A DNA stretch of 64,000 bases from a virus (Duplodnaviria; Caudoviricetes): IMG/VR virus record IMGVR_UViG_3300025000_000055. One strand, given 5' to 3'. Below are positions 7,103 to 49,728 of the stretch, piece after piece; positions within the stretch are counted from its first letter, which is position 1; each line of letters starts with the position of its first letter. The position numbers and the translations under genes were made by a program. The notes beneath the pieces are model-generated. The model was given only the letters and a program-made list of their open reading frames with translations. It was not told the origin of the DNA and did no database searches.

Positions 7103-9729
7103 TTATTGTTCAGTTGAACTATCATCAGGATTTTCTGTTAAAATTTTCTGATATTCTAATTTAGCATCTTCTACAGCTGTATCAAACATCCTCCAAGGTA
7201 ACATTGGTAAAATTTCTCTAGTTGCCTTATTCATAATTAAATCTTTAATTTTATTATCCTTATCTGTTGGAGAAGCATTTTCTCCCGATACTATTTTAAG
7301 CATAAATGCTAGCAATTGATCTGCATTTGAAATTAAATCACTCATATTCATAGTATTTAGTGCTTTAGGTAAATTTAAACTATATACAAATGTTTCAATT
7401 ATTTCTTTAGGTATTTCTGTACCAGAAAATTTCATTATTTTTTTATAGAATTCAGTTATATTAGGGTTAAAATCAAGTTGATCACTTACAACTCTCCCTG
7501 TAAATTTGGCATTAGCCATGACAAGAGTCTTTGCATACGGTATATTCACATAGGTCGTTAATCTATGCAGTTCTCTTATGAACTTCCCTAACTTTCATTA
7601 GGATACTAGACTATATCTTCATCTTTTATTAAGTTAATTAATCCTAATAAAAGAGCTCTCCATTTCGATTTAAGGGATTTTCACCCACCTACTTAGGCCC
7701 TACTCCTATTGATCATTTCAGATCCAAAGGGATAGTCGTTGAACTTTATTCCTTATTATATAAGGAATCTTAGCTGCGGATCACCTAATCTTAAACATTA
7801 TTACCTTACTCAGGTTAATTACTCCTGACCACTATATCATTGCTAATATAGTTTGGTAGTTTAAGATTTAAAGACTTCCCCGACAATTAAAAGAGAATTG
7901 GTATTATAGATCACTCTATAACCTGACTAATAATTATCAGCTTCATTGATATAATTCATTATTACAGATGGGACACCAGTACCATTAATGTAAGATGTTT
8001 TTAACATCTCCATTAAATCAGTATTTAATTGTATATCCTGACCTGCCAATATATCAAACTCTATTCCTTTTTCACCAGTTCTACCTACAGGTACAAAAAC
8101 ACCTTTAGCATGACCAATTTTAGATACCATTGTATTATAATTTAATAAATCCATAAAATTTATATCTCTTTCTTTAAGAGTTCTAGCTACATCTTGTAAT
8201 TTATTAATAATATTTGTATCTATACCAGAATTTTTAATATAATTAATTCTAGTATCGTTAGATTTACTAATAATAGAAACCATCTTAAATATTAAAAGAG
8301 CTAAATATAATTTAGCATAAAATAATGACTTCATTAGTATACTAGTTCCTTCACCATCTTCATTTTCATTAACAGTGAATTCAGTTATATAATCAACTGG
8401 TATAAATTGAAATTTTATTTTCTTTTTATATAGTTCATTATAAGATAAGCAATTGAATATTAATTCTTTAAATTTAATATTTTCTTCTAAGTATTTTTTA
8501 TTAAATGATTTAACGATTTTTTCAGTTAGTTTAGTTAAAAACATATTTTCAAGTTCGGGTGTATTAAGATTAACAGTATTAATTCGTATTGTATTAATAA
8601 ATGGGGATTTACTAATAGGTGAAGCTTCATGTATATAATAGTATCCTATAACATGATCCATTATTTTAACAGGTATGATCTTTTTAGGACTAATTAATTT
8701 AATAAAACAATCCGTTATATTATCAAAATTATTAGTCTTATCTTTTTCTGTAGATATAGTTGCATCATTAAAAAATGTTGAAAATGAATTAGTTTTATTT
8801 TTAGATTTATTACTATTTTTAATAGCATCTTCAACATCTTTTTTAAATTTTTCATCAGTAATAAGTTCCGATACATCAACACCTTCTAGTATAGGTATAT
8901 GTACAATATCATTTTCGACTTCAATATCTTTAACTAAATCTTTTATTTCTTTTTTTAATATTGAGGAAACCGATTTAATTTGCCCGTCATCTTTTAATTC
9001 TCTTATAAAATTATCATCAATATTTTCAGTTATAGAAATTGTTTTTAATTCTCTTACCTTTTTATCATAGAAATTTTCAAATAATTTTGAATAAGGTACA
9101 GTGTAAACATAATATTTACCGTATTGAAGAGTTTTCGGTATAATATGATTTTTCAATTTACTTGATAATTTAAATTTAGTCTCTAAATTTTCTATTAATG
9201 ATATATAACTCTGTTTATCTTCTTCACTACAATTAGAACTTTTAAATTGTAAATTTCTTGATATAGATTGAGTAACATCATCAGCTGTTACTATCGCATC
9301 TCTAGTTGCATTAACAGCTTCTTCTAGCTCAAATAGATGACTACAAATTAAATCAAGGTCTTCATACAAAAGATTTTGATTTCTATATCTTTCATTAAAA
9401 AATTGAAATACAGCATTGTCTTCTGATGAAAATATATCTTCAATTTTTTTTATATTTGAAAATTGTTGACTCTCATAATCATTAAATAGTTTTACTAGAA
9501 AAGTTGATATGTCATCTCCACCAAAATCAGTTAATTTTTTTATCTCCTGAAAAATAACATCATCAACCTGATCTGATAATTTTTTAATTTCTTTCTCTCT
9601 TTTAGTATCACTTGCATTAGTATTAAAAGAAATTTTATCCAATACATCATTAAATAAAGCATTTAATTTTATCAACGGTCTTTCTATTTTTTTAACAATT
9701 ACTCTTTTAGTTTGTTTCTCAGCACTCAT
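7103..9729 (-). CDS. Portal protein, spliced (exons 9729-7936 and 7537-7103)
   Basis: Removing intron B joins ...NYINEAD|YAKTLVMANAKF... in frame (about 742 aa). Size, GVPSV motif and position near the head/tail genes fit a jumbo-phage portal. Confidence 0.7.
7538..7935 (-). mobile_element. Group I intron B (398 nt, no ORF)
   Basis: P (AATTGTCGGGAAG), Q (GATCCGCAGC), R (GTTCAACGACTA) and S (AAGATATAGTCT) elements. P1 is CTGAT|...GTCAG with a U.G pair. Terminal G at 7538. Confidence 0.92.
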
Positions 9730-9787
9730 TTATATTATTCACTTCCTTCGGTATTTTTTATTTAAAAAATACTAGAATAATAATATT

Positions 9788-10435
9788 CTAGTATTTAATA
9801 CACATGTATCTGTGAAATAAATTAAAGTATTCGGTTTCAAAAATTATTAAACTTTCAAATAAATTACTATTATTTATATCTTTAAAACTAATACTGATAT
9901 TATTACTTTTTTTCAATAACGGTATTAGTTTATTTGCTAATCTTACTTTATAATCATTCATTGAAAAAGTAACAATATTTTTAGCATTTAGCTTTTCTAT
10001 TATATCATATGATATTATCTTTTTATCAATATTATCAAAATCATTTATTTTATTTATAGCTAATTTATACAGATCATATAATTCTTTTGTTATAGACTTA
10101 ATATTAATTATTCTACCTATTTGAAAGCTATTTTCATCTTTATCATCTGTTAAAAATAAAGTATTATTTAAATAATTTATATGTTTTATACTCTTTTTAT
10201 TCTTACTAATAACTTTAAATACATCATTGGAACTTATACAAAATATTTGATCATTTTCAATATTAAATATAGGTGTAAATACTTTACCAAAATGTTCTCC
10301 ATAACTCAAATGTTTGTTATCGATAGTGAATATTATAGTACCATCAGAAAATAAAAGATATTCTGTAGATAATTTTTTAGCCAATTGATTAAAATCATTT
10401 AATTTTTTTACTTCAAATTTATACATATATTTCAT
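9788..10435 (-). CDS. Hypothetical protein
   Basis: 215-aa ORF between the DNA polymerase and portal genes, with AAGG RBS. Confidence 0.7.
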   Translation of the reverse strand: MKYMYKFEVKKLNDFNQLAKKLSTEYLLFSDGTIIFTIDNKHLSYGEHFGKVFTPIFNIENDQIFCISSNDVFKVISKNKKSIKHINYLNNTLFLTDDKDENSFQIGRIINIKSITKELYDLYKLAINKINDFDNIDKKIISYDIIEKLNAKNIVTFSMNDYKVRLANKLIPLLKKSNNISISFKDINNSNLFESLIIFETEYFNLFHRYMCIKY

Positions 10436-10438
10436 CCT

Positions 10439-12910
10439 TTACACTATAATTTTATTAACATAATAATTATTAACATCATTAATATCAATAATTAGTTTCT
10501 TGTTCTTTTTAATATTTAACTTTTCTTTTATAACAGAATCTATTTCTTCTAATTTGGGAAGATTAAAAAAATCATGACCTAAACTATTTAAATCACCTAT
10601 TAACATATTATCTATAAAGATTTTACCTATATCTTCTTTTTTATCTTTATCATCAATATCTTCAATATAATTTGGCAATTCCTTATTATTTTCTATAATT
10701 AATTTACCGATCATGGAATTAGGTTCAATATTAAAACAAATAATAATACTTGGATACATACTGGAAAACGTAATATTCACATAGATCGTTATTCTATGCA
10801 GTTCTCTTATGAACTTCCTTAGCTTTCACTAAGATACTAGACTATATCTTCATCCATTATATAATCGGTATAATGGAGCCTCCTATTTCGATTTAAGGGA
10901 TTTTCACCCACCTACTTAGGCCCTACTCCTAATGACCATTTCAGATCCAAAGGGATAGTCGTTGAACTTTATTCCTATAACTAGGAATCTTAGCTGCGGA
11001 TTACTCAATCTTTTTATTATAAATAAAAAGCTCTAAGAGCTTCCCCGACAATTAAAGAAGTTATTCAACATACATTACTATATGAGGGAACAAATTCATC
11101 CATATCAATAACATTGTCAAATATAAATTGACTTTTTTTACCTAAAATTTCAATACCAACATGAGAATTTAATAATGGGTTGGCAACTAAAGCTCCTGCA
11201 AATTTTTCATCTTCATCATCTTCGTTATTCTTGATTGTTTCTACACCATACTGAATATTAATGTTATTAGCTATTATTAACCCTTGCTTATAAAATTCTA
11301 TATATGCACGATTTTTTAAAAACGTTAAGTTCACATAGATCATTAGTCTATGCAGTTCTCTTATGAACTTCCCTAAGCTTTCCTTAGGATACCAGACTAT
11401 ATCATCATCTCATAGAGATGCTTCCTATTTCGATTTAAGGGATTCTCACCCACCTACTTAGGCCCTACTCCTAATGACCATTTCAGATCCAAAGGGATAG
11501 TCGTTGAACTTTATTCCTATAACTAGGAATCTTAGCTGCGGATTACTCAATCTTTTTATTATAAATAAAAAGCTCTAAGAGCTTCCCCGACAATTAAAGA
11601 AGTTTACAATACATATTACTATGTAAAGGGTCTAATTATTAAACCGTTTGTCTAAATACTTTTTTATAAGTTGTAGCATTAGTATATGAACGTTGATATA
11701 CATTATCAATATCATTAACTTTTCTTTCAATACCTAATTGAAGTAAGACGTCTTTAATATTATACATAACAAATTTTTTATAATTTCTATATGGTAAAGT
11801 TTTAATATTACCATCTTCACTATAATCTAATTTAGTATCACTAATTTCTTTTTCTGCAACATAAGTAAGAGCATTAGAACGTAATTCCGAAGCTCCTTTT
11901 CTTAAAGCACTGTATACTATCATTTGATCTAAAAAAACTGTATAAGATGATATTTTAAAATAATCACCTTTATTTGCTACTTTAAAATTTCTCATATCTT
12001 TTACAAACATTAATTCTTTTATATTAAAATCAGGATGACACATTATTTCTTTTGGATCTAAATTTAACTCTTTCATACGAGCTATTAAATATGGGACATC
12101 AAATCCGATATTCCAAATCATTAAGAAATCACGTTTAAGAGTATTTATTAATTTAAATGTATCTATCAACATTTCACTTTCATCTTCATACATATAAATA
12201 TTATATTTTAATACCCCATATGATTCATCAAATACTTTATGAAGCTCTTCTACAAAATTATCTATATCTTTTTTAAACTTTTCTATTTGAGGATTATTTT
12301 CATTTTCTAAAAGAAAAGTAAAACATGTGTTACTAGTTTCATCAATTAAAGTAATTGCATTAACTGGACATTCACCATCTTTAGGAAATCCAATTACTTC
12401 TATTGAATCAACTTCAATATCAAGATATGTCTTAGTTATAGGTTTAGGTTTATCATTATGATAATTTAATAACCATTGTATTCTATACCAATTTTCAATA
12501 TTATAATCTGAACCAAATACATATCTATATTTATGCAAATTATTAATAGCATACCTATTTCTAGTTTCCAACTTTTGTTTAATATAAGTTAAATATTCTT
12601 CACCTGCTTGTTTAGCTATATAAAAAGGTAAATCTTTATATTTAGTTCGGTGACACTCAGTTTCACTTAAAGGACTAAATGATTTATTATGTTGAAAATT
12701 TCTAAATTCTTCTTTTGTAAAATAAATATCCATCTCAGGTTCATCTATAGTTAATATGTGTTTTTCACCAGTATTTAAATCTTTATAAATAATATCGAGA
12801 CTATCTTTATACTTTCTTTCTTTATTAGGAAAATGGTAAATTGTTTCTAAAAACATTATGTTATCACTTTTCATCTTTCCAAGAAACTTCATTCTATAAA
12901 TCACCACCAA
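10439..12910 (-). CDS. Family B DNA polymerase, N-terminal subunit of a split enzyme, spliced (exons 12910-11642, 11322-11098, 10768-10439)
   Basis: Exonuclease motifs YLDIEVD, WNIGFDVPY and YNIKDV. Splicing restores RQTV|FLKNR and motif A VIDMD|FSSMYPSII. The product (about 607 aa) ends without motifs B and C. Confidence 0.9.
10769..11097 (-). mobile_element. Group I intron C (329 nt, no ORF) in DNA polymerase motif A
   Basis: Family P/Q/R/S core and tail GTGAATATTACG. Excision restores DMDFSSMYPS. Confidence 0.92.
11323..11641 (-). mobile_element. Group I intron D (319 nt, no ORF) in DNA polymerase
   Basis: Family core, P1 GGTT|...GACC, tail GTGAACTTAACG. The join is in frame. Confidence 0.92.
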
Positions 12911-13024
12911 TTGAAATATTTTTTTATTTAAAAATTTGTTATTAGAATAATTGAAAACTATATCAAAGCCTATTTATACTATATGAAATAATTAACAAAA
13001 CACAATAATAAAGGGGGTAATAAT

Positions 13025-14134
13025 ATGAATGATAAAAAATTATTTAATGTAAATATTAACTTACCAATAAAAGATAGTGAATTACTAGAAGGAATTCGTT
13101 CTTTAACCACATCAATACAACAAAAGAATGAAAAAAATAATTCATTTACTTTATCTTCAATAAATAATACTAAGAAAGAGAAGAAGAAAAAAAAGAATAA
13201 ATTACATGATATAGAATTAATGGATGGTGGAGAAATAAAAAATATATCAGATAATGAATCTAATGAAAGAAATGAAGAAACTAATTTAATAGATTTAGAT
13301 GAATTACTTAGGGATGACGACGATGATGATATAGGAAATATAATTATTAGTGAACAAGGGAGAAATTATAAGAAATTAAAAGAAAAGGAAGATTATAAGA
13401 AAGAATTTGCTGAAGAATTGACTCTATTATATAAATTATTAGATGAAACTAATGTATTTGGTAAAGAATTAGAAAAAAAATATAAAAGTTTAGATGGGAC
13501 TAAAGTTAGAGGTATTAATAAATTCGTTTTTGATTTAGGCTTATTAGTATTAAACTCTAAACAAAGTAAATTAAATATATTAAAAGAAATTTCATCAGTG
13601 AAAAAATCTATTATTGATCTTAAAATTAAAGCTGATGGTAAAAAGGATGCTATCCAAAATACTTTATCATCAGAACATTTAGCCTCAGCTTATCTTAAAA
13701 ATGTTGTTAATTTTGGACGTTCTGATTTTATAAAAGAATTGAATAATAAAGATACTTATAGTGGAATAGTAGAATCAATAAATTCAGATGATAATCATAT
13801 AGAAGGTTATAATGAAAATGAATTTAAAACTTATAATGATTATATTGCTTCTAGATTAGAAAATGAAAATAATCCTTTTAGAAGTAGTGATGGTAGTAAA
13901 TATATTGAATATGAAAATTTAGAAGTAAAACTTCATATAAAAAAATGTGTTGATACTGGGGAATGGGAATTCATTGCATTAGATAAGGATAAACAACAAA
14001 TATTTGATTATCCAGTACCAACTAAAAGAGATGTAGGTAAGATGAAATTTAGTCCTGATGGGTCATATGCAACTGATTCAAGAGGAAGGAGTTATAGAGT
14101 AACAGAGTATTTTTCTAATATGAATGAAGATTAA
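13025..14134 (+). CDS. Hypothetical protein (late-promoter driven)
   Basis: 369-aa ORF with GGGGG RBS and AACA-N6-TA at 12999-13010. Confidence 0.75.
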   Translation: MNDKKLFNVNINLPIKDSELLEGIRSLTTSIQQKNEKNNSFTLSSINNTKKEKKKKKNKLHDIELMDGGEIKNISDNESNERNEETNLIDLDELLRDDDDDDIGNIIISEQGRNYKKLKEKEDYKKEFAEELTLLYKLLDETNVFGKELEKKYKSLDGTKVRGINKFVFDLGLLVLNSKQSKLNILKEISSVKKSIIDLKIKADGKKDAIQNTLSSEHLASAYLKNVVNFGRSDFIKELNNKDTYSGIVESINSDDNHIEGYNENEFKTYNDYIASRLENENNPFRSSDGSKYIEYENLEVKLHIKKCVDTGEWEFIALDKDKQQIFDYPVPTKRDVGKMKFSPDGSYATDSRGRSYRVTEYFSNMNED

Positions 14135-14137
14135 AAA

Positions 14138-14179
14138 AATAAGATAACTGTGATGACTTATCATCACAGTTATCTTATT
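14138..14179. terminator. Bidirectional terminator
   Basis: 19-bp inverted repeat AATAAGATAACTGTGATGA/TCATCACAGTTATCTTATT between convergent genes. Confidence 0.7.
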
Positions 14180-14201
14180 TACTTATATAATAAATAAACT
14201 T

Positions 14202-15098
14202 TTATTTATTCATTTTTTCTAATAAATCAAGTAGGTGATTTTCACATAAAACTTGTTCACAATTATCACCACCATTATTATAGAAAACTTCTACGAATGC
14301 ATTATTATCACAAAATGAATCATTATTACAAACCCAACATTTTGGATTACTTTCATTAACCTTCAGAATTTTACTTAATAATAAAAATTTATTAGTATTA
14401 GGTACCATTATTCTAATAGGCCAATTAGCAGTTGGTTCTTTTTTTATATATTTTATTATGCATTTATTACATAAATCCCAACATTTTTTAGTCGTTGACA
14501 TTACACTTTTTATTGGTTGTAAACAACAAGATCTACAAACAACAGTAGATTTATTAGTTTCAATAGATTTAGGATTATTCTCAATAAAAGCTTCTAATAA
14601 TTGACCGGAATTTTCTCGTATATAATTATTTACATTAAAATATATATCTTCAATAAAACCATTATCAAGACTCCTAAAACCAGTCCTTATTGGATAGACA
14701 TTGGAGGTATTATCACCTTTTTTAATAAAAGTAAATTTCCACCCAAATGTGAGAATAAATAAATTTAACCAATCAAATAAACCGAGTTTAATAAATTGGT
14801 CCCAATATTTACATGAATCTTTATCCATATCTAAACTTCTTTTATCATATATAAAACTTATTTTTAATTTAGTATATTCTTGATTTAAAAATCTAGTAAC
14901 TTTCTCATAACCTTTAGTGTTACTTTCTTCACTAAATCCCCTGTATTTAACTCTCTGTGGATATACTTTTGTTATCTTTTTGTCATCATTAACATTAACA
15001 ACAATAGCCCAACCAAATACATGAAGATTCATATTAGTATACCAAAGTAATCCACTATCTCTAAATTCCTGCCAAGCATTTTGAACTTGTTTATCCAT
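14202..15098 (-). CDS. Hypothetical protein with two copies of a W..F...GL...FGW domain plus Cys-rich Zn-finger-like motifs
   Basis: Internal repeat visible in the translation. C-terminal CRSC, CNKC and CWVC motifs. Confidence 0.7.
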   Translation of the reverse strand: MDKQVQNAWQEFRDSGLLWYTNMNLHVFGWAIVVNVNDDKKITKVYPQRVKYRGFSEESNTKGYEKVTRFLNQEYTKLKISFIYDKRSLDMDKDSCKYWDQFIKLGLFDWLNLFILTFGWKFTFIKKGDNTSNVYPIRTGFRSLDNGFIEDIYFNVNNYIRENSGQLLEAFIENNPKSIETNKSTVVCRSCCLQPIKSVMSTTKKCWDLCNKCIIKYIKKEPTANWPIRIMVPNTNKFLLLSKILKVNESNPKCWVCNNDSFCDNNAFVEVFYNNGGDNCEQVLCENHLLDLLEKMNK

Positions 15099-15113
15099 TA
15101 TTAATAACCCCCC

Positions 15114-15707: not shown

Positions 15708-15727
15708 AATAAATCACACCCCTCCCA

Positions 15728-16141: not shown

Positions 16142-16145
16142 GTTT

Positions 16146-29695: not shown

Positions 29696-32600
29696 TTAAA
29701 TATCTTCTTCTATACCATTCATTTTAATTTTAATATAAAAAAGATTTGTATTTTCATTCTCTTTCCTTTTAACTTGGAATTTATTATTAATTTCTCTTAT
29801 AGTATTAATTCTATCTAAATATTCTTCTTCATTATCATAGTCAATTGAAACAAAACAACTATTAGGTTCATCTTCCTTACAATATTTAAATAAATCTTTC
29901 TCAAATAAACATTTAAAACTTTCTGGTTCTCTTGAATCATCAAAGAATAAACCATGAGTTTTACAAAAAGGAGTTATAATACCACTAGTGCCTGGATCTG
30001 TTATGTTCACATAGGTCGTTAATCTATGCAGTTCTCTTAAGAACTTCCCTAAGATTTCCCTAGGATACCAGACTATATCATTAACCTAAATTTATTAGGT
30101 TACTTCCCACTTCGATTTAAGGGATTCTCACCCACCTACTTAGGCCCTACTCCTATTGCTTATTTCAAAGCCAAAAGGGATAGTCGTTGAACTTTATTGT
30201 TATAATTAATAAGTGTAATCTTTTGATATGTGTACCCATGAAGTTCTTTTTCTTAAATGTTTAACCAAACCCCTATAAGATTCATTTTGTTTTTTGTCTT
30301 TAACTATCATATTCATCTCCTTTCTTATCTCATATTCAGAATAACCTTTTTCTAATAAAATACATATCCCACGAATTAATGTTTCTGAATATTTATTACA
30401 TCCATGTCTTTCACCTTTAACTGGTTTTTGTAACCCTTCTCTCCATGAATGATCAATATTTTCTTTAGGAGTACTCCATTCTAAATTTTTATAAAAATTA
30501 TTAGTTTTATTAGTATCTTTATGATTTATATGAATATATTTTTCATTAAAAAACACTTTTAATGGTAGAAAATAATATCCGACTAATCTATGTATATAAA
30601 ATTTTCTTTGTTTTTTGTATCCTTTTAGCGTACATCTTAAATAACCATCCTTATCAGTAAAAGGACTTAAAAATCTACCAGTTAATTTATTTCTAACCTT
30701 ACCATAATTACTAATTTCGTATATATTTTTAACATTATATTCTATAATATCTTTCCATTCTTCTTCATGGGGTTTAATAAATATTATCATTTAATACACA
30801 CCTCTTAACATATAACAATCTTAGCTGCGGATTACTCAATCCTAAAACCTTGTTACCATACCTTAGTTGATTAGACTAAGCCACTATATTGTTTCCGATA
30901 TAGTTTGGTAGTTTTAGGCTATAAGAGATTTCCCGACAATTAAAGAAGTTTTCATCATAAGTTACCCTATAATGCTCCAATCCAGTAGAGTTACCGCATA
31001 CGTTAATATCGAGCTTCCCAATGTAAGATGGATGAATATCACGATATTTTTTTGATATCCTATTGTCATTCTTACCACCCAAACTATTCGGACCTTTAAT
31101 AGTATATCTTAGTTTACTAAAAAAATCCATATCATTTATTTTATCCGTTGTGTTCACATTACTCGTCAAATAATGCAGTTCTCTTATGAACTTCCCTAAG
31201 TTTCCCTAGGATACCAGACTATATCTTCATCCTTAATTAAGTTAATTACTCTCATTTAAGGAGCTCCCCGTTTTAACTCACCATTATAGACTTGTGAGAT
31301 TACTCTACTTCATATGTTAATTTCTATAACATATTTTTCGATAGTCTTTGAACTTTCACCTTTATATAATTTTTTCCAAGATCTCCCTGATTTGATATTA
31401 CTCATTAAAGTATAAAGATTTCTAATTTCCCTTTTTGATAAATTATTTAAACCTAGTTTATCAATTATCTTTTTATGTTTTAATCCTTGTTTCATAAACT
31501 TAATTATATTTCTTATTAATTCTTCATCATATCTTTTTTGTTTACATTTATTCAAATCAATATTTTCGGTTAAATAAATTCGTGTTCTTTTAGCTCTTAA
31601 ATCATTTATAAATGTACGTATATTTTTTTTATTTTCTAAATTTAATTCATAAATTATAATATCAGTACTTTTATTTTCTTGTAATAAAGATACTATTTGT
31701 TTAGATAATTTATCCGAGAATTTACTTAAAGGATGTTTTTCTCCAATAGGTTTATTTCCTTCCTTATATGAATACGCAATATTTTCTTTCTGAGTACATT
31801 TTTCTAAAAGATCTAATTTATTAAATTTATTTATACTATCTTTATGATGAATTATCATTGATTTATCAGATATATTAAAATCTGACATAAAATAATAAGC
31901 TAATAATCTATGAATTAAAAAATTTCTAAATTTACCATCTATACATGATAATTGAATATATTCGTATTCTTTAGTATTTTTAGAATTTTTTAAAATCCTA
32001 TTAAATTTATCATTTCTAATAAATCCATCAGAATTTATAGAATAATTCTTTTTAACTTGGGGCAAATCTATTTTTACCCAATCTTCTTTTTTCATATCTT
32101 TCTCTTTTCTTTATATAATTTTTATTTTTCTTGGAAAATATATCTTTATAAAGGTTATTAGCTGCGGATTGTCCAATCCTTACTGTTATTACTATACCAG
32201 GTTAATTACTCCTGCCACTATAATATCACTATTATAGATTAGTAAGTAAGGCCCTAAGGAGTTCCCCGACAATTAAAGAAGATTCTTTACAATATTACTA
32301 CTGTAAAGGACAGTATCTATCAAATCTTAATAATCCTGAATCATGTAAATTCTGAATTAGCATATCTCCAGGAAATTTAAATATTTCTTCAATATTTTCT
32401 AAAGTCATTTTTTTACCTAAACTAATAACTCTATTCATTCTTTTACTAAATGCTTTAGTTAATAAAGAAGCAATATATTCATTACATCTTAATCTTTTAT
32501 TATCTATAGACATATTATCTTTCTTTCTTAATTCATCAAAATTTTGAATCATCCATCTGATAACAGAATAAACATTCTTTCGATGTTCATAATCTATCTT

Positions 32601-38820: not shown

Positions 38821-38828
38821 TTTATTAA

Positions 38829-41715
38829 TCATACTTTAATATCAATAACGAACATTTCTTCTTTAATTCTTCGTCTCTCAACTTCTTCATCTAAAAGTTT
38901 TTCGAAATCTTTTGTAGTACCAACAAATACTTTATTTTCCTTATATTCATTAATAATGTCTATTCGTCTTTTAATATCTTTAAATTCTTCATTATTACTT
39001 ATAAAGAATTTTCCATCATAAAATTTACCTTCAAGAAACCCAGTATTAATATCTATATCAAATAATTCATTATTAAATTCAATTTTTAAACCCATAGATT
39101 TCAAAAAGGCTCCTAATATTTCAATATTTCTATTTTTAAAATTTGGTTTATATTTAAAATCTTTTATAGGGTTTAATCTTGTCATTAAATTTTCACCTAA
39201 ATTACGTCTACCTATAACAGATGACCTATAAAATAAATGTAGTTGAGCTATTAGTTCAGTTGGAACACCTATATTAGTATTAAGATTTTCATCAATACCA
39301 ATTCTTATAGGAGTCTTAGAATATAATTCCTGATGAGTTTTAGCCTTATTAGATTTTTCAGGTAAACCTTTTCTAGATAAAGTTCCAGTTGATCTAGCTG
39401 AAAAACCTTTCTTAGCTGTTTGCATTAATTTCATTACATACATATCACCAACTACTAACTTTTTCATCATTTTAATTTTCCTACCAAATCTATTTGTATA
39501 AACATCATATTGTTCAATCCAATCATGTTCTTCATATAATTGAATAAGTTTATCAAATAAAAATTCTTCTTCCCATAAAGGAGGTATATGAATAAATACA
39601 CCTTCTTCAACTAAATTATTAAAAAATTCTTCTTTACTAATAACACTTAATCTCTTTAAATATTGTCTTAATTTTTCTTCTTGGTCTTTATTAAAATAAC
39701 TTATTATATTAAGAAATAAATCTTCCTTTTCTTTTATGTCAGTCATTGTTTGAATACGTTCTACAGTTCTATTACAAATAAAAGTAATTGATTGTTCAAA
39801 AAGCTGGTATGAGTTTACAATTGTTTTAGACCATATCTTCATCTCAAATGAGATGCCTCCCGTTTCGGGTTTCCCCTACTCTACTTACTTCTTCAGTTAT
39901 AAGTAAATTATAACCTATGCTTTCGATGGTCGTTGAGCATATTTCAAATATTAATATTTGAAACTTCGCTGCGGATTATTCAATCTTAAACCTTTTTACC
40001 ATACCTGAGTAATTACTTCAGCCCTTATCTATATGTCACCATGATAAGTTGGTAGATTAAGATTAGCGAACTTTCCCGCAATTAGAGAGGTTTTAAATCG
40101 CCTAAACCTTACCAGTCCAGCGATTGATCACAGATAAACTGTTAAACAGAAGGTCTACACGTTCTCCAGTTTCTAAAAATGGCATCTCATCATCAGGTAA
40201 TATCTTTGATATAACACCTTTGTTACCATATCTCGTTGTATTCACATAGAACGTTAATCTATGCAGTTCTCTCATGAACTTCCCTAGTTTTCACTAAGAT
40301 ACTAGACTATATCATTAACCTAAATAAATTAGGTTACTTCCTATTTCGATTTAAGGGATTCTCACCCACCTACTTAGGCCCTACTCCTATTGTACATTGC
40401 AGTACCTAAGGGATAGTCGTTGAACTTTATTCCTTATATAAGGAATCTTAGCTGCGGATTACTCAATCTTTTAATAATATAAATATTATTAAAAGCTCTA
40501 AGAGCCTCCCCGACAATTAAAGAAGTTTTCTATATATGTCACCACATATAGGGGCTAAGCTATGTAACCCGTTACTTTCTGACCCACTTCTAAATAGGCA
40601 TCTTTTTCAACTAAAAATTCTATTACTATATTGGAAAATACTGAGTTATTTTCTTCTCTCCATTTATATTTTTCGTCTAATATATTTTTTGCTTTTCTCA
40701 TATAAAAACTTATTTCTCTAGAATATTTAGAACCAGAATCAATTATCTGTTTACATCTTTTAAATATTCTTTCATAATAAACTAATTGCATTTTATAATA
40801 TTTCATTATCTGTCTATTAAAATCATTCTCTTCCAATTCATCTAAAGTTTTATTACAATATATATCTATATCAATAATTTTACCTTTACCTTCAATAAAG
40901 AATAATACATCAGAAGTAAAATCAATCTTTCTAAGATTAGATTTCTTTAAATCATATAATAATTGATTATTATGAATTCTCCTCTTAGCACAAATTATTT
41001 TATCCTTAACATATTCGTTTATATCAGGAAATGTCTTATAATTATTACCATTCCCATATATATTACAAAAGATATCATTATCATTTAATGAAACTTTAAC
41101 TCTCTCAACTTCTGTTGAAACCATTCTTCTTGATAATGATTCTGAACATACAATAGCATCTTCAATAGTATTATTCTCTAAAAGATACATAAACTTAACA
41201 TTAGCACCATAACAATAATTCATATCTTCATCATAAGAAGAACTCTTATAAAGAACTTCTCCTTTATATATTGAAGTCCCAACTTCTTTATTATCAATAT
41301 TATCAGTATTATATTTGAAACCATATCTTTCTGTTAAATCTTCAACGTTTTTCTTTTCTATAATATCATATTGGTCATTTTCTTTATCATATATGAATAA
41401 TAAATATATTTGTTCTTCATTTTCACCATCTGTAAACTTACTAATTTTATCAATAATAACACAATCATTTTTAACTTTTTTATAACCAGTTGAATTCTTA
41501 CCAACTATATTTTCATAATTAGTAAAAATTCTTGGAAATTCGGGATTATTTAGAGTAACACATTGCTTCAAGTGAGCTGTAAACATAATATTTCTTGATG
41601 AACTAATATAACCTGGATTTGTTAAAAGAGTCATCCCAAATATATCATCTTTACCTTTAAACTCCTTTTCTTTTTCTTGTAATATTTCTTTCAATGACAT
41701 TGTAGTTTTATACAA
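38829..41715 (-). CDS. rpoB: Multisubunit RNA polymerase beta-like subunit, C-terminal part (probably non-virion RNAP), spliced (exons 41715-40567, 40233-40119, 39817-38829)
   Basis: Splicing restores GQKVTG|[11 protein letters not shown]...MPF...SVINR(T|TA=L)NSYQLFE, equivalent to the RpoB GDKxxGRHGNKG and SRMN motifs. EDAIV and [17 protein letters not shown] are also present. About 750 aa. Confidence 0.9.
39818..40118 (-). mobile_element. Group I intron H (301 nt, divergent, lacks P9)
   Basis: P AATTGCGGGAA, Q AATCCGCAGC, P7 GACCA/TGGTC. 7-bp P1 AATCGCT|...GGCGATT and 6-bp P10 GGTTTA/TAAACT. Confidence 0.88.
40234..40566 (-). mobile_element. Group I intron G (333 nt, no ORF)
   Basis: Family core, P1 GGGT|...GCCC, tail GTGAATACAACG. 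Excision restores TG|RYGNKG. Confidence 0.92.
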
Positions 41716-41806
41716 ATCTGTGTACCCCCTTATTTAGAAATTATTATTGAGAATGTATATTCATATAATATATAAATACACATTCTCTAGTTTTTATTAT
41801 AAAAAA

Positions 41807-43763
41807 TTATATAGCTTTTTGAAATTGTTTTTCTTGTGATTTTTCTAACCTATCACATAATTCAAAAATATTTAATAATTGACCATTTTCTTCTGGTTCA
41901 ACATGCGATAGTTGTTTTTCTAATATAGGTAATGACCTATTAAATAATTCGTATCTTAATTTTTCATTAGTAAGAAATTCTTTTCTAAATTTTCTACTAT
42001 CAAATTTAATATCTTTTACACCTTCAATATATTTATAAGGATTACGACCAGCAATTAATTCATTATCTTCAGCAAATCTTAGTTGAGTTAAAATAGGGTC
42101 AAAACCAGTGGATTGGTCATAAATAAGATTTACAAATTGACCAGCTTTATTTGTTCTAGATTTTAGAAACTCAGCTCTTACACCAAATCCATCAAAACCA
42201 TTTTCTTCTTTCTTAAATTTTTCTGAACCTAAAGCTATAAAATTAACTAATAAATTAGCATAATAGATCGATTTATTCACATTGGTTGTCAGTCAATGCA
42301 GTTCTCTTATGAACTTCCCTAATTTTCATTAGGATACTAGACTATATCTTCATCCTTAATAAATTTTATTAAGGAGTTACCCATTTCGTAAAGAACTCTG
42401 AAAAGTTCACCTCACCATTATTGACTTGTGAGTCTACTCCTACTTTACTTTTATTAAAAGTAACGTCATCAGATAGTCGTTGAACTTTATTCCTTATTAA
42501 TTAATTAAGGAATCTTAGCTGCGGATTACTCAATCTTTTTATTATATAATAAAAAGCTCTAAGAGCTTCCCCGACAATTAAAGTAATGCTAACATAATAT
42601 TACTATTATGCCACCCTAAATTTAGGTGCATTCCCACCCGTTAAGTTCACATAGTTCGTCAAACTATGCAGTTCTCTTATGAACTTCCCTAAGCTTTCCT
42701 TAGGATACCAGACTATATCATTAACCTAATAAGAATTATTAGGTTACTTCCTATTTCGATTTAAGGGAATTTCACCCACCTACTTAGGCCCTACTCCTAT
42801 TGATCATTTCAGATCCAATGGGATAGTCGTTGAACTTTATTCCTTATTAATTAATAATAAGGAATCTTAGCTGCGGATTACTCAATCTCTTAATAATATT
42901 AATGTATTAAAAGCTCTAAGAGCTTCCCCGACAATTAAAGAAGTTATTCAACATACATTACTGTATGAGGCCCCACAAATCTCGAGTTTAGGGATACTCT
43001 GATCCATCTTCATATATAATAATTGTGGTTGCGTTTTATGCATAGGGTTAATTTCAATTTTTTGATTAATATGATTTATAGCAATAACATTTATGTTATA
43101 GGCTTTTATAATTGGCATTAGTCTCTTATAAAATTGGGCCAAAGCTTTAGCAACTCTGTTAGCATAAGTCCCACCTTCCATTTCATTAGAAGCATCTTTT
43201 GAAGCAACAGTTGGAATTGAATCTATAATCATAACTGTTGGAACAAAGGTTTTAATGGGTCTATTAAATTCATCAACTAATCCTGTATCATAAGTATAAT
43301 CTTTTCTATTAACTTCTTTCTCTTGAGCTATTTCAACTATACTATTAAATATATCTTCAATATAATTTTTTTCTTGTTTCAATAAATATTTATCATCAAG
43401 TTCTTGCTGAGTCATAGATGTTACATTTTTTATTCTGGTATAAGATAATACTTGTTCTAAGTCGTAATGTTGAACAAATGCATTATCAACAAATTTTCTA
43501 ACAATATTGGCTGCAATTTGAATAGCAAAAGTAGTTTTAGCAGTACCAGCCTTACCTATAATTGTCATAAACGTACCACCAACTATACCAATAGAAGAAT
43601 AAGTAGTTATAAGTTTCTCATCTAAATCTCTAACTTCCACCATATACCCATTTCTATAATCAAATGGTACAAAACCTGTTGGATAACAAATGGATGTTTG
43701 TGTTGGACTAAATAAACCCTTTTTATCTTTTTCTCTTAATCTTGAGAGCATTTTATTAGCCAT
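41807..43763 (-). CDS. recA: RecA/UvsX-like recombinase, spliced (exons 43763-42990, 42638-42624, 42268-41807)
   Basis: Walker A GKAGTAKT, Walker B MIIDSI and INHI motifs. Splicing gives DQSIP|GGNAP|IYYAN, equivalent to RecA L2 TTPGGNALKFYA. About 416 aa. Confidence 0.9.
42269..42623 (-). mobile_element. Group I intron J (355 nt, no ORF)
   Basis: P1 CACCT|...GGGTG, P/Q/R/S elements, tail GTGAATAAATCG. Confidence 0.9.
42639..42989 (-). mobile_element. Group I intron I (351 nt, no ORF)
   Basis: P1 CCCT|...GGGG, family core, tail GTGAACTTAACG. Confidence 0.92.
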
Positions 43764-43896
43764 TTTTATTTTTCATCTCCTTATAAAATTTTATTGACTT
43801 TCTTTATATGATAGTTGTTCTAAAGATAGAATTCTAAAAAATATAAAAAAAATAAAGAATGGAATTAACCATTCTTTATTTTATTAAAAGTATATT

Positions 43897-44832
43897 TTAA
43901 TATTTCTGTTTTATGATTTGACCATTATTCAACATAATGAAGAATACTTTAAAATGATGTTCTAGCTGAGATAGGGCATTTGAATAAGTCCTCTTAACCC
44001 TATTATTATAATACTCTGAATTAACAAATAATGTTACTGCATTAAATCTTTGTGCCTTTAGTTCTTCAATAACATACTGCAATTCAACATTGTTAAATTC
44101 AACGATGTTGAAAGCATTAGTATTACTATATTTTTGATGCAAACTTTTTAGTATACTAACTTCCGAACGCATTGACAAAATAGTATGAGTTGGTCTATTA
44201 GGTCTATAATTTGATATAATGTATGGTGTATATTTATCACCATTTTTAGATTCTACAATTTTTTTAGAAAATAGAAGTCTATTTATTTTATTAGTAATTT
44301 CTATTTCATCCCCGTTAGATTTATCTACATCCGTACTAATTAAACTATCCTCAATAATAGTGAATGTATAATCAATATCTGATTTAGTATACTTATCGTA
44401 CAATTTAATCTCTAAAGGATTATCTTTTTTATTTATACTTGCAATAATCGTTAATTCACCTTCAAGTGAATAATTCTCTAGTAAACAAATAAATTGTTTA
44501 CTAATATTGACAAGCATTCTTTTACCAATATTTAATGTAATTAGCATGATATCAGTATTATGCTCATTTTTACTTTCAACTATAAATGGGTTAAAGTCTT
44601 TCTTCCCATAAATAATACTTGTTGGTGTACTGGTAAGAATACCAGGTTCTTTCATTTTAATAAATTTTAACAAACCATCATTATCCAATGGCGGAATTAT
44701 ATTCCCCATACATCTAATGAAACAATTCACAACAATTACAGGGGAATCTTTTCTTTTAAAAAAGGCACTAGTCTTACTATTAAGAGTATTAATCTCCCAC
44801 GGTCTTGGACTTTCGTTAAAAATTCCTATCAT
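43897..44832 (-). CDS. Hypothetical protein (paralog 1 of a tandem pair)
   Basis: Shares FNE..PWEI, DxNPFIV and RPxRPT motifs with 44881-45789. Confidence 0.7.
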   Translation of the reverse strand: MIGIFNESPRPWEINTLNSKTSAFFKRKDSPVIVVNCFIRCMGNIIPPLDNDGLLKFIKMKEPGILTSTPTSIIYGKKDFNPFIVESKNEHNTDIMLITLNIGKRMLVNISKQFICLLENYSLEGELTIIASINKKDNPLEIKLYDKYTKSDIDYTFTIIEDSLISTDVDKSNGDEIEITNKINRLLFSKKIVESKNGDKYTPYIISNYRPNRPTHTILSMRSEVSILKSLHQKYSNTNAFNIVEFNNVELQYVIEELKAQRFNAVTLFVNSEYYNNRVKRTYSNALSQLEHHFKVFFIMLNNGQIIKQKY

Positions 44833-44880
44833 AATAAATCTCCCCCTATTTTATTATTTTTATTTTATAAATACAATTTT

Positions 44881-45789
44881 TTAATACTTATATTGTATTA
44901 TAGAACCATTGTTCAATAAAATAAACACCGCTTTAAATTTTGATGTAAGTTCTTGTAATATTACTTTATATTTATCTTCTAATCGTTCAATTGATTCATT
45001 AGAATCAACAAATAGAGTTATAACACTGTATCTATTACTCTTTAATTCCCCAATAAGGTCTTTAAGATTTTCCTCACTAAAATAAGTAAACAAATTATGG
45101 TATTGTAAGTTATTCTTAACAACCTTTTCCATAGTCCGTTCCATTTTTGAATACACATCATTGGAACATATAACTATTTGTGTAGGTCTTTTCGGCCTGT
45201 TATTCTTTATTTTTATAACAACAGGTTCAAATAGTTTATTTAATTTCTGTATAGATTTTTTACATCTTAAATTAAAATTTTGATTATACATAATTTTATA
45301 TTGAGTTATCTCTTTGTCTTTTTCATTATAAAGAGAGATATAACAATAAGAATCTGTATTTGCTTCCATCGAGATTACTATATTTAACTCATTTTTATTA
45401 AGACTATTGTCAATAATAAAATTTCTATCCATCTGAATATCAAATAAGATTTTATCTCTAACATCCAAACTTAATAGTATAACGTTTCTGTTATTTCCAC
45501 TTCTTGATTGTACAATAAATGGATTCAAATCTTTATATCCAAATAAAACATTTGTATCAACATCACATATCTTAACAACATCTATGGTTTTACCAATGTT
45601 ATTAACAGTTGTTTTAATTTTATTTATAAAATCTTCTTCCGGGGATGTTAAATAAATCCCACAATTATAAGTACGAATTTTCTCTTCATCTTCTTTGAAA
45701 AAATCATACTTTTTAGAAATCTGTAAATATTTACTACCCTCCCTTGATATTTCCCAAGGCTTTTCTGTTTCATTAAATAAATAAATCAT
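44881..45789 (-). CDS. Hypothetical protein (paralog 2 of a tandem pair)
   Basis: Same shared motifs, with GGAGG RBS. Confidence 0.7.
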   Translation of the reverse strand: MIYLFNETEKPWEISREGSKYLQISKKYDFFKEDEEKIRTYNCGIYLTSPEEDFINKIKTTVNNIGKTIDVVKICDVDTNVLFGYKDLNPFIVQSRSGNNRNVILLSLDVRDKILFDIQMDRNFIIDNSLNKNELNIVISMEANTDSYCYISLYNEKDKEITQYKIMYNQNFNLRCKKSIQKLNKLFEPVVIKIKNNRPKRPTQIVICSNDVYSKMERTMEKVVKNNLQYHNLFTYFSEENLKDLIGELKSNRYSVITLFVDSNESIERLEDKYKVILQELTSKFKAVFILLNNGSIIQYKY

Positions 45790-45951
45790 AACCCGACCTC
45801 CTATCTCTATATCTCATCTTTTCTATTTAATATTTCTGTTTATTTCCAAATTATTTTTAATTAATCATAATTTTCCATTTCCTATCATTCCTTTAAATAA
45901 ATTAATATAAAGTTGATTTAATAAATCAACTTTATATTATTTTTATTAATT

Positions 45952-46824
45952 TTATAAAAATTTTTTATTTTTCATATCAGAAATAACATCTGATACTTTA
46001 GGATATGTTTCAGCACTTACCTGTGTAAATTGAATCCGACGAGCACTATCTTTACCTCGTTTATCATCTCTTTCACGACGGTCAATAAAATAGGCTAGTC
46101 TTTCTTTAATTTCTTTCTTCTTACCTTCTTCAAGATAAGATAAAACAAAGTTAGTTAAAATATTCCAGATTATCATCTGTTTGTCATCTAAATGACGGAT
46201 GATATCTTTTCTTTCAAGGGCGATTTCCATAATAACTGCATTCAAAAAATCTTCATTAAATAAAGACATAAAAAGTTTCTTTAAAATTTTATTGTCTAGT
46301 TTTAATTCAGATTCTTTACTCAAAGCATAAAGTTTACGAATAAGTCTCTGCACATAAATTCCAATTATCCTCTCATTTTCAATCATAGATTTATCAGGTA
46401 TAATAGCTAGTAATTCCTTAATTGTACTTTCATCTAAATCAACTTTTTTCTTAATTTTCTTGACTTTCTTTTTAAGCAATTCATCAATAATACCACAGTA
46501 TATATCATTAACATCAGTTTCAATCTTATCATGATTTCTTTCTAAAAAGTTATAAAGTAAAACAACCAATGCGGGGTCGTTGTTTTCTTTATTTTCTTTA
46601 ACAACCTTCTTCAGAGTTTTAGCAAATTTTAAATCCATCATTTTTTCAAATATAACAGTTACAATGTCCTGCTCCTTAAAACCTCTGCGAATATAAAAGG
46701 TTGTAAGGTCTGAAAGGTTATCTGAAATCACACGAAGCCTTTCATCTTTATTCATTTTCTTAGGTTTCCATTCTTTTAATAATTCTTTTACTGACATTAA
46801 AAATTCCTCCTTTAAAATATACAA
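45952..46824 (-). CDS. Hypothetical protein
   Basis: About 281-290 aa. GGAGG RBS before MSVKELL. Confidence 0.7.
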   Translation of the reverse strand: MYILKEEFLMSVKELLKEWKPKKMNKDERLRVISDNLSDLTTFYIRRGFKEQDIVTVIFEKMMDLKFAKTLKKVVKENKENNDPALVVLLYNFLERNHDKIETDVNDIYCGIIDELLKKKVKKIKKKVDLDESTIKELLAIIPDKSMIENERIIGIYVQRLIRKLYALSKESELKLDNKILKKLFMSLFNEDFLNAVIMEIALERKDIIRHLDDKQMIIWNILTNFVLSYLEEGKKKEIKERLAYFIDRRERDDKRGKDSARRIQFTQVSAETYPKVSDVISDMKNKKFL

Positions 46825-47001
46825 TAAGTTTCTAATATTAATTTGTTGTTTATTTACAAATTAATTTTTATAATTCTCAACTCCTTAAAATTTAATCTTT
46901 ATACTTTAAAAATAATATATATTTATAAAGTAAATATAATTTTTTATATAATAATAAAAAATAAACATAGATAATACACTATCTATGTTTATTTGCCATC
47001 A

Positions 47002-47721
47002 CTAATTAAAACAATCTAAAGTATAAATTCCATCTTTATCTGGACTATTAAATATTATTGATGTTTCATCAGATATATTTAGAGCTGGACGAACACCAAA
47101 TATCATATTAATAAAACATGATCTATACGTCACCCCTAAATAATTAACATAGGTGGGTGATGGTATAAGAAATGATCTACTTCGTAACCACCACATCCAC
47201 CCATGATTTCTTTCTCTTTTTTTCTTATTAATTTTAATATTATCATTATAACATTCTTTTGATAAAGTTGTTATACGTTTTTCAATATTCCCAACAAAAA
47301 TAGGCAAAATATCAGAACCTTCAATATTATTAACTTCTGCTCCAACTTCCACTAATGATAAAAGAAACACTTTATCTATTAAGTCATCAGTTAATTTGGT
47401 GTCATGTTCATTTTTTATAACCTTAATATTAGTATCTAAAATCTTAGAAAATTCATTAGTAGTAAAGTGACTTAAAAATCCTGAAACTGTATTTAACCAG
47501 TAACGTATATCGGAAGTACCATATGATTTTATTTTATCTTTTGAAAAAGGGTGTAAATCAATAATTTCATCTGTCAATAAAGTAACAGAATTCTCAGGAT
47601 AACCCGGATGGTTCTTAGCAACTATTCTCCAAATAACAGGTGTTATTTCATTGTCACCAACTTTATAACTACCAAATCTAACTTTGTCACTAATATTTAA
47701 TTCTTTAATTAATTTAGACAT
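47002..47721 (-). CDS. DUF6273-like domain protein
   Basis: WRIV, SDIRYWLN, DKVFLLS, WWLRS and GVRPAL motifs. ATG 47721 follows an AGGAG RBS. Confidence 0.7.
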   Translation of the reverse strand: MSKLIKELNISDKVRFGSYKVGDNEITPVIWRIVAKNHPGYPENSVTLLTDEIIDLHPFSKDKIKSYGTSDIRYWLNTVSGFLSHFTTNEFSKILDTNIKVIKNEHDTKLTDDLIDKVFLLSLVEVGAEVNNIEGSDILPIFVGNIEKRITTLSKECYNDNIKINKKKRERNHGWMWWLRSRSFLIPSPTYVNYLGVTYRSCFINMIFGVRPALNISDETSIIFNSPDKDGIYTLDCFN

Positions 47722-48018
47722 ATCACCACTCCTTTTATATTTTTTATTTAAATATAATATATAAATATAATCTTTTATATTTGTTTCTAGATATATAAAT
47801 ATATAATAAGATGTGTTTATTAAACACATCTTATTATATATTATTTACTTAAATTATCTAAATTAGTTTTTACAGATGACTCAATTAATGTCTCTAAATC
47901 ATCCTTTTTTTTAATCTTTTTCTTTGTTGGGTCCTCAATATCTAATTCCCCAAATACACCAACTTCAGTTAGTAAACATAGTTCTTCATTATTTTCTAAC
48001 ATATTTTTCAACCTCCTA

Positions 48019-49728
48019 TTATTTTAAAGATTTTTTAACTAGTAAACCCTTTGTAACTAAGTCACTATTTATACCCATACTCGTCAAATGCACATCAATT
48101 AAATTTAATGTTACTTTATTTTCAACATTATTAGTCAAACTATTTAGAGAAACAAATCCTTTTTGTGCTATAGATGCATACATTTCATTCTTCATAACCA
48201 TATCATCGGCTCTCGGCGATAAGTTCATATTGTTCGTTAGACAATACAGTTCTCTTATGAACTTCCCTAGGGTTTCCCTAGGATACCAGACTATATCACT
48301 AACCTAAAAATATTAGGTTACTTCCTATTTCGATTTAAGGGATTCTCACCCACTCACTTGAGCCCTACTCCTATTGCTTATTTCAAAGCCTAAAGGGATA
48401 GTCGTTGAACTTTATTCTTATTTTTTAATCATAATTTTATATTTTTTCGAAATATGACCCCATTTACCATATTTTATACCATCTATTAAACTATAAAAAC
48501 TATTATTGTTCTTTCTTTTTTTATAACCATATATATGCATTATTTGCATTTGAGTAAGCCCCTTCTCAAGATATTCGCATATTTCAGTAACTAACGCTTC
48601 TGAATATTTAGCATAATAATTTAAACTACCATTACAACCAAATCTACTTTTACCATGAATTAAACTAAAGTCATTATTTTCTTTAGTTGTAACCCATTCA
48701 AGATTTTCGTAATAATTATTAAATGAACATGTATCTTTATGATTCACATTGATTATACATTGTTCTTTATTATAACCATTAATAAATTCCCAAGCAACAA
48801 GTCTATGTATTGCAACATTTTTAATTTCTTTATTTTCACCCATTAATCTTAAATGTAAATATCCTTTTTTATCATGAAAACATTTTAAAAATCTATCAGT
48901 TTTTATATTTTTTATTTTACCATAGTTACTTATTAAATAAGTATTCTTTTTAATAGATGGATATGTAATATTTCGAAAAATTTCTTTATCTTTTTTAATA
49001 ACTATATACATTTTTTATCATCCTTTTAAAATAAATTAAAAAAATGTATAATAAGATATTAAAAAATAATATAACTTATAAATAAGAATCTTAGCTGCGG
49101 ATTACTCAATCTTTTTATTTATATAAATAAAAAGCTCTAAGAGCTTCCCCGACAATTAAAGAAGTTTTCTATATATGTTACCAATATATAGGGGCTAAGC
49201 TATGTAACCCATTAGCTCTCTTAGTGCATCATTGGCTCCAACAGATAATAATGAAAAGTTTTCTTGATCTGATTCTCTAGCGTTTTTATCTTCACCAACG
49301 ACCTGACCAGTCATTGCAGAACGACTTGAACTTTTTGTTGATAAAGTATTTTTTTTACTCAATAATTGTTGCATTCTTTTAATATGAACATAACCAACAG
49401 GTACTTCGTATTTAGTAACAACGGGATTATCAATATTATTATTAACAAAAGGTACTACTATTTTTTCGAATAAAGGTATATCTAATACTTTAGCCGCTTT
49501 TTCTATATTGTCAATATTTAAATCTCTCTCATAATCAACCATATCTAAAATAAGATATTGGTCATCATCTTTAAAAAATTCTTTAAAAAAAATATCGAAT
49601 TGTTTATCACTCATTGGTTGAAATAGTTCTTTATATTTTTTAGTGTTTATACTTGTTGGGTCTAAAGCATCAAACGTATCATAAATTAGTTTTTCCATCT
49701 TTTTTCTTTTATTTTTAATAAGATTCAT
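48019..49728 (-). CDS. C-terminal fragment of an RNAP beta-like subunit (probably virion RNAP), spliced (exons 49728-49207, 48216-48019)
   Basis: VPVGYVHIKRMQQ...RSAMTGQVVGEDKNARESDQE resembles the RpoB C-terminus. Splicing joins LRELMG|PRADD (about 239 aa). Late motif at 49760-49771. Confidence 0.72.
48217..49206 (-). mobile_element. Group I intron K (990 nt) with an HNH ORF
   Basis: P1 GGGT|...GCCC, family core, tail ATGAACTTATCG. Confidence 0.9.
48418..49011 (-). CDS. Intron-encoded NUMOD4-HNH homing endonuclease
   Basis: YLISNYGK, IHRLVA and VNHKDTCSFNNYYENLEWVTTKEN motifs, located in the P6 loop. Confidence 0.88.
   Translation of the reverse strand: MYIVIKKDKEIFRNITYPSIKKNTYLISNYGKIKNIKTDRFLKCFHDKKGYLHLRLMGENKEIKNVAIHRLVAWEFINGYNKEQCIINVNHKDTCSFNNYYENLEWVTTKENNDFSLIHGKSRFGCNGSLNYYAKYSEALVTEICEYLEKGLTQMQIMHIYGYKKRKNNNSFYSLIDGIKYGKWGHISKKYKIMIKK

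Follow-up and report, generated by a model that had tools for sequence, protein, structure and literature searches.

Paralogous group I introns of an uncultured phage very probably exchanged ribozyme hairpins by recombination

Within one stretch of phage DNA, eleven group I introns share a nearly constant ribozyme core and carry differing sets of hairpins around it, which raises the question of whether the copies diverged as whole units or traded parts. The stretch is 64,000 nucleotides (nt) of an uncultured phage (IMG/VR record IMGVR_UViG_3300025000_000055), and at its full length is called the window here. We conclude that its introns very probably exchanged ribozyme hairpins by recombination, each copy now being a different patchwork.

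Core-motif searches together with the Rfam RF00028 covariance model located ten complete introns, all on the minus strand, and the 3' part of an eleventh, on the plus strand, at the start of the window. A first-pass annotation of the sequence had lettered the copies A to K, and these letters map consistently onto the eleven introns, with A lying outside the range 7538–49206 given there. The seven host genes encode terminase (one intron), a virion protein (one), DNA polymerase (two), a polymerase-like protein (two), RNA polymerase beta (two), a UvsX-like recombinase (two) and a second RNA polymerase beta-like protein (one). The introns, with the hairpin types described below and with RF00028 scores where available, are as follows.

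1–241, plus strand: intron A, 3' part only, from P7 to the 3' splice site; terminase large subunit gene
7538–7935, minus strand: intron B, virion structural protein gene; long P5, type 1 P7.2, no open reading frame (ORF); 67.3 bits
10769–11097, minus strand: intron C, DNA polymerase gene at motif A (DxxSMYPS); short P5; 67.9 bits
11323–11641, minus strand: intron D, DNA polymerase gene, 225 nt upstream of C; 81.1 bits
29999–30986, minus strand: intron F, polymerase-like gene (phrog_2943) shared with E; long P5, type 1
31146–32318, minus strand: intron E, polymerase-like gene (phrog_2943); long P5, type 2 P7.2
39818–40118, minus strand: intron H, RNA polymerase beta gene; divergent copy, long P5; 72.9 bits
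40234–40566, minus strand: intron G, RNA polymerase beta gene; short P5 of a variant common to I; 76.4 bits
42269–42623, minus strand: intron J, UvsX-like recombinase gene; short P5, type 2 P7.2; 62.0 bits
42639–42989, minus strand: intron I, UvsX-like recombinase gene; short P5 of the variant common to G, P2 like that of C; 73.4 bits
48217–49206, minus strand: intron K, second RNA polymerase beta-like gene; short P5, type 1; exon join open

By sequence criteria the ten complete copies are real group I introns. The seven ORF-free copies (B, C, D, G, H, I and J) score 62–81 bits, the RF00028 gathering score being 50 bits; E, F and K, which have an ORF in P6, and the partial A have no whole-intron score and retain all core anchors. 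The core motifs were observed 10–12 times, against 0.2–1.4 expected by chance. Borders were set by demanding open exon joins, and excision of each complete intron (10/10) restores an open frame with conserved motifs. A U precedes the 5' splice site in 10/10 introns and the terminal nucleotide is G in 9/10, with F ending in ...ACA. The P7.1/P7.2 extension and the P9.1/P9.2 elements that follow P9 would make the family IA2-like; H lacks P9–P9.2.

For comparison, each copy was divided into pieces at seven conserved anchors. In every copy but H, the core, consisting of P3, P4, P7, the joining strands and P9.1, hardly varies in DNA sequence, and the hairpins between core elements (P2, P5, distal P6, P7.1, P7.2, P8, P9 and P9.2) fall into discrete sequence types. 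The first-pass annotation had described P5 as long in B, E, F and H and as a short AT-hairpin in C, D, G, I, J and K; the distance from one P4 strand to the other is 89–93 nt in the former and 36–43 nt in the latter. It had also described an insert of two types, and the corresponding motifs are present as GGGTGA[GA]A[AT]TCCCTTAAATCG in A, B, C, D, F, G, I and K (type 1) and as CTCACAAGTC[AT]ATAATGGTGAG in E and J (type 2); H has neither. Its name for this element, the P7–P8 insert, does not hold, since alignment to the Rfam model identifies a P7.1/P7.2 extension, a 60–90-nt insertion between the P7 5' strand and the P3 3' strand (model positions 148/149).

The types combine freely enough to make the introns mosaics. 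Both P5 lengths occur with both extension types, in the four combinations that had been claimed. P2 is shared between introns of different genes, as proposed, at an identity of 0.88 over 32 nt for C and I and 0.91 over 32 nt for G and K, which have the same P1 guide as well; for D and E it is only 0.75 over 32 nt, with stem and loop in common. P2 types alpha and gamma occur with P5 types S1 and S2 in all four combinations, in C, I, G and K. Intron C has a P2 resembling that of I and a P8 resembling that of A, and A in turn joins this P8 type to a type 1 P7.2. The proposal that P2, P5 and the P7 extension are modular was sound and its list incomplete, P6, P8, P9 and P9.2 being modular too.

Tests for recombination and phylogenetic partitions were run on nine full copies. 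The pairwise homoplasy index (PHI) test gave p<1/2000 under three gap treatments and Sawyer's sum of squared condensed fragments p<1/5000. C and D had the longest run of concordant sites, 75 polymorphic positions, against a permutation mean of 20. We also built maximum-likelihood (ML) trees for the 5' third (P2–P6), the middle third (P7–P3') and the 3' third (P8–P9.2). The three trees are incongruent: the data of each third reject the ML trees of the other two in the approximately unbiased (AU) test, with p values of 0.0002–0.008.

The same pattern extends to 26 non-redundant copies from the window and close relatives, in which a module was scored as shared at ≥90% identity. Module-sharing phi ranges from -0.10 to 0.25, averaging 0.11 between adjacent modules and ~0.03 between more distant ones; it is highest for P2 with P5 and for P2 with the 3' tail, both tied to insertion site. 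The claim that modules assort independently therefore holds approximately at the population level, where it corresponds to phi of 0–0.25, and the window alone offers few informative pairs. Exact identity between copies other than H is 19–58 nt pairwise and reaches 159 nt. H matches no sibling exactly over more than 12 nt and has no closely shared module, and may be taken as an internal control; this contrast fits homology-dependent exchange.

Direct evidence of exchange comes from neighbouring introns, with one conversion tract in the DNA polymerase gene.

10881–11062, minus strand: gene-conversion tract in intron C, 182 nt from P3 to P7.2, one mismatch to D at 11423–11604

Outside the tract, identity between C and D is ≤0.83 in every flanking module, falling to 0.69 in P2 and 0.47 in P8 alongside. 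The direction of transfer can be read from a sister phage, L007, which has introns at both the C and the D sites. Where D and the ortholog of C differ, C is D-like at 27 consecutive sites and ortholog-like at both ends, a run with a counting bound of 1.8e-13. D is the donor, because in P4 and P7.1 the ortholog of D has the same sequence type as the tract. The tract ends, at 11062 and 10881, fall inside the conserved P3 and P3' blocks. The conversion also removed a 476-nt degenerate P6 insert that the ortholog of C keeps.

In the UvsX-like gene, I and J have a common P6 (0.93) and a common P9 type. Their orthologs in the relative L004 have unlike P6 hairpins and a common P9 that differs from that of the window. 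I and J are thus homogenised relative to their orthologs in P6 and P9, and therefore neighbours evolve in concert within each genome. Sharing over a longer distance and in inverted orientation is seen between A (1–241, plus strand) and B (7538–7620, minus strand), which lie ~7.3 kb apart and have an 83-nt exact stretch from P9 to P9.2 while differing in P7.1, P7.2 and P8. The patches are non-reciprocal, end in conserved core blocks and leave the exons intact, and neighbouring introns are preferred partners. No crossover of the reciprocal kind, with loss or shuffling of inter-intron DNA, was found in the window; all exons are present and in order.

Orthologous introns of sister phages differ by whole-hairpin replacements. 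Intron B provides a control for vertical descent, with a uniform identity of 0.84–0.98 to its L057 ortholog in every module. By comparison, the P8 of D is 0.48 identical to that of its ortholog, whose P8 is in turn 100% identical to that of F, and the P2 of C is 0.72 identical to that of its ortholog, which carries a D-type P2. Low values are likewise confined to particular modules for I (P5 0.69, P6 0.70), J (P6 0.64, P7.1 0.59) and G relative to its orthologs in L002 and L003 (P7.1 0.64, P8 0.50–0.63). These two orthologs of G (L003:8336–8654 and L002:776–1095), from two metagenomes, are near-identical. The one in L003 lacks 8 nt of P7.2, has had its P8 replaced and contains two broken P3 pairs, likely a scar of the swap. 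The other of the two has GAGATAGTC in place of GATATAGTC as its P7 3' strand.

Each copy presumably still splices, and every module variant folds as the expected hairpin in predictions. A 14-sequence alignment has compensatory changes in 27/70 consensus pairs, with two-sided compensatory pairs in P3, P5, P6, P7.1, P7.2, P9 and P9.2 among others. RNAalifold recovered P3, P5, P6, P7.1, P7.2, P9, P9.1 and P9.2 from it; P4, P7 (a pseudoknot) and P8 (unalignable types) were not recovered, and the program was therefore used for pair counts only. Every L2 is GUAA or GUGA, both GNRA loops, and every L9 is GAAA. P3 has the same pairing in most copies and only three covarying versions.

These observations would be accounted for by gene conversion, in which homologous recombination copies short non-reciprocal patches from intron to intron. 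The conserved core blocks, in which any two copies are exactly identical over 19–58 nt, would act as the homology. Donors would most visibly be the neighbouring intron of the same gene, and also introns of other genes and of co-infecting sister phages. Only patch conversions would persist, because reciprocal crossovers would delete essential exons, and the recombinants would be tolerated because the modules share their interfaces (the GNRA L2, the GAAA L9 and the P3 pairing). The enzymes may be those of the phage's own UvsX-like system, with nicks by I-HmuI-like HNH proteins as possible initiators.

Several points weigh against hairpin exchange or against parts of this mechanism. The source sequence is a metagenome assembly of an uncultured phage. 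Part of the alignment behind the ML trees forces dissimilar hairpins together, and the PHI test on the core alone (208 gap-free columns of seven type 1 copies) is marginal, at p 0.03–0.12; this set has 21 informative sites and hence low power, and 87/210 of its site pairs are incompatible. Strictly incompatible module pairs number 2/28 in the window alone and 7/28 with relatives, few because many module types are singletons; module typing was coarse (85% single linkage), merging P9 and P7.2 each into one type. Whether the donor lay in cis or in a co-infecting genome is resolved only for C/D and I/J. Finally, a role of HNH proteins as initiators is conjecture, because their genes are 65–77% alike and show no recent spread.

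A stronger form of the exchange model would have shuffling driven by an element-encoded process and not left to occasional accidents, with I-HmuI-like HNH nickases nicking at or beside intron-containing alleles and repair proceeding from any copy via the core blocks. We consider this doubtful. If it were true, the copies in the genome and those of co-infecting phages would form one recombining population near linkage equilibrium, and selection would maintain the universal interfaces, namely GNRA in L2, GAAA in L9 and the constant P3.

Exchange might instead have occurred only in trans, with introns invading each site independently from an external pool and recombining solely with allelic introns of co-infecting phages. 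Sister phages do carry different modules at orthologous sites, intron presence does vary among relatives (E is absent and another site occupied in L009 and L011), and the P9.1 motif of the family recurs in more than 117 IMG/VR contigs. However, modules are shared between non-allelic sites: the P2 of C with that of I in the UvsX-like gene, P1–P2 between the two beta genes, and P8 between F and the ortholog of D. In addition, C/D and I/J (in P6 and P9) are homogenised within a genome and different between genomes, which is the signature of intragenomic conversion. We therefore regard exchange in trans alone as improbable.

Mosaics could also be created by an assembler, or by polishing, that joined or homogenised reads of paralogous introns or of different strains. 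This has to be weighed for an uncultured phage whose 82–93% identical sister strains share the same samples and whose introns are repeats with identical stretches of 19–159 nt. However, each intron is flanked by the right exons of one gene, and because the correct two exons flank every intron, an artefact would need a double switch within ~100–200 nt. Helices remain complementary in each copy, the same kind of mosaicism is present in several independent contigs, and mosaics of relatives are identical when assembled from two metagenomes (L009 and L011; L010 and L013, at 100%; L003 and L004 for J). An assembly artefact is thus very improbable as the source of the patchworks.

Vertical, tree-like divergence with independent deletions, in which copies made by duplication or transposition drift apart and shared hairpins are retained ancestry, appears extremely improbable. 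Real deletions exist: the ortholog of I in L004 has an internally deleted long P5, a true deletion derivative that keeps the basal stem of the long form, and P7.2 is 8 nt shorter in the L003 ortholog of G. However, the short P5 of the window is one homologous hairpin, in which C, D, J, K and relatives agree at 95–100%; its stem is not contained in the long form, and it occurs with both P7.2 types, J and type 1 relatives having 100% identical versions. Deletion thus explains neither the short P5 nor the overall pattern. Nor do the trees of the three thirds, which reject one another, the four combinations of P2 alpha/gamma with P5 S1/S2, or the 99.5% identity of C to D over 182 nt with <70% on either side, fit a single descent. 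Convergent origin of the shared modules is implausible given identities of 20–90 nt.

The first-pass annotation had proposed that recombination between ectopic copies shuffles ribozyme domains, and the incongruent trees, the permutation tests, the D-to-C tract and the homogenisation of I and J bear this out; its 'combinatorial library' is a figure of speech.

A related process is said to operate in phage T4, for which Hall, Liu and Shub in 1989 and Bryk and Belfort in 1990 reportedly described recombination among the td, nrdB and sunY introns that gave hybrid introns and exon shuffling. As there, the conserved core is where introns at different sites of a single phage genome recombine, producing hybrid ribozymes with two parents. 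The T4 events were reportedly rare, laboratory-selected reciprocal crossovers among three introns that deleted or rearranged the DNA between them, whereas in the window the patches are natural, short and non-reciprocal, and involve eleven copies with intact exons and eight nearly unlinked modules. The evidence thus supports a natural, extensive and non-reciprocal variant of a known process of inter-intron recombination.

Wu & Hao (2014, PMC4059233) describe the omega intron of yeast mitochondrial 21S rRNA as a mosaic that arose through horizontal transfer and gene conversion. It resembles the window introns in being a natural mosaic group I sequence, with PHI p<0.001, AU incongruence, and gain and loss of its endonuclease decoupled from the ribozyme. 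However, omega occupies one allelic site across species, whereas the window has paralogous introns at ten sites in seven genes that exchange whole hairpins. IA2 introns of Firmicutes phages (Twort and K, and the RNA polymerase introns of AR9/PBS1 and MarsHill) have the same P7.1/P7.2 and P9.1/P9.2 architecture, match at 71–78% by blastn over P7.2–P8–P7, including inside RNA polymerase beta genes, and have I-HmuI-like HNH ORFs; targeted literature searches found no description of module-level mosaicism in them. As in the window, essential genes interrupted by numerous group I introns and HNH genes are found in the Jug phages, for which passages of PMC12880540 give ~18.5 group I introns per genome, and in the Bastillevirinae, according to passages of PMC11878797. 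These passages, which catalogue introns, speak of a 'mosaic pattern of intron colonisation by HNH nucleases' in intron-rich phages; recombination of ribozyme modules was not met in the passages searched of either source. Targeted literature and keyword searches likewise found no report that paralogous introns within a single phage genome are mosaic at the level of hairpins.

If hairpins are exchanged as proposed, the peripheral hairpins of IA2 introns would be interchangeable in nature, and the dozens of combinations would be a resource for designing ribozymes and for studying RNA modularity. Because the parts differ in history, a tree of complete viral group I introns can be devoid of meaning. 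Multi-copy introns would constitute dense recombination sites inside essential phage genes, at which conversion can erase remnants of homing endonucleases, as in the 476-nt insert lost from C, and could in principle reshuffle exons.

The HNH ORFs and the small exon of the UvsX-like gene are located as follows.

30206–30790: HNH ORF of F, in P6; NUMOD4 and HNH_3, match to PDB 1u3e at E 3.8e-14
31310–32095: HNH ORF of E, in P6; weak NUMOD4 match
42624–42638, minus strand: 15-nt exon (GGNAP) between introns I and J
48418–49011: HNH ORF of K, in P6; NUMOD4 and HNH_3

PDB 1u3e is a solved intron-encoded HNH enzyme, and by their domains the F and K products are I-HmuI-like HNH homing endonucleases, with nicking activity predicted. 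We considered whether the HNH genes are recently spreading cargo and rejected this, the inserts being only 65–77% alike. The only orthologous ORF is that shared by F and an intron that L009 and L011 have at another site of the polymerase-like gene, after AAAGGTC; these two introns are 77% identical in the ORF and 97% in P5. Among other orthologs, that of B (L057:99–1273) has a 799-nt P6 insert with a 241-amino-acid ORF, absent from B of the window. That of C (L007:8012–8800) carries the 476-nt P6 insert, which has no long ORF and is probably an endonuclease-gene remnant, and its P4 3' strand is mutated (GCATCC).

At the exon level, the sequence downstream of intron A (242–1660) matches terminase PHROGs, and exon 1 of the host gene of K matches phrog_3233. 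Exon joins read VIDMD|FSSMYPS at C, VCGNS|DPGTSG at F and INR|LNSYQLFE at H, and the UvsX exon lengths of 300/15/300 yield an open frame. The borders of E are matched by an intron-less allele in L009 (1018–1162) and L011 (5767–5894), which is contiguous exactly across them. The 3' end of F (29999–30010) reads ...AACATAACA, with a terminal A instead of G that the NS|DPG join needs; taking the next G as the end would shift the frame into a stop. In L011 an intron lies 6 nt further downstream and ends in G.

The window is AT-rich and jumbo-phage-like, with a G+C content of 20–34%, mostly 20–26%, and no tRNA genes were found in its 64 kb. Its genes include those for multisubunit RNA polymerase beta, family B DNA polymerase, a UvsX-like recombinase, terminase and virion proteins. 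The nearest relatives are uncultured IMG/VR contigs at 82–93% nucleotide identity, one of 249,853 bp. Megablast and blastn against cultured phages found no close relative; by blastn, Staphylococcus MarsHill, Twort/K-like phages and Bacillus AR9/PBS1 match the intron cores only partially, at 71–78%, over ≤50% of any intron. The P9.1 motif, the 19-nt GTTCATAAGAGAACTGCAT, lies in viral contigs from many metagenomes (loci L014–L127), and because of its recurrence in IMG/VR we consider the intron family widespread.

Finally, some insertion sites have features of their own. G (40552–40566) and K (49192–49206) have the same first 15 nt, TACATAGCTTAGCCC, after exons that end in GGGT, and are inserted at non-homologous positions in two different RNA polymerase beta-like genes. 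The 5' exons flanking I and J both end in CCT. Intron H has only 10 nt after the P7 3' strand, with P9, P9.1 and P9.2 missing, and is the sole phase-1 insertion among the copies.

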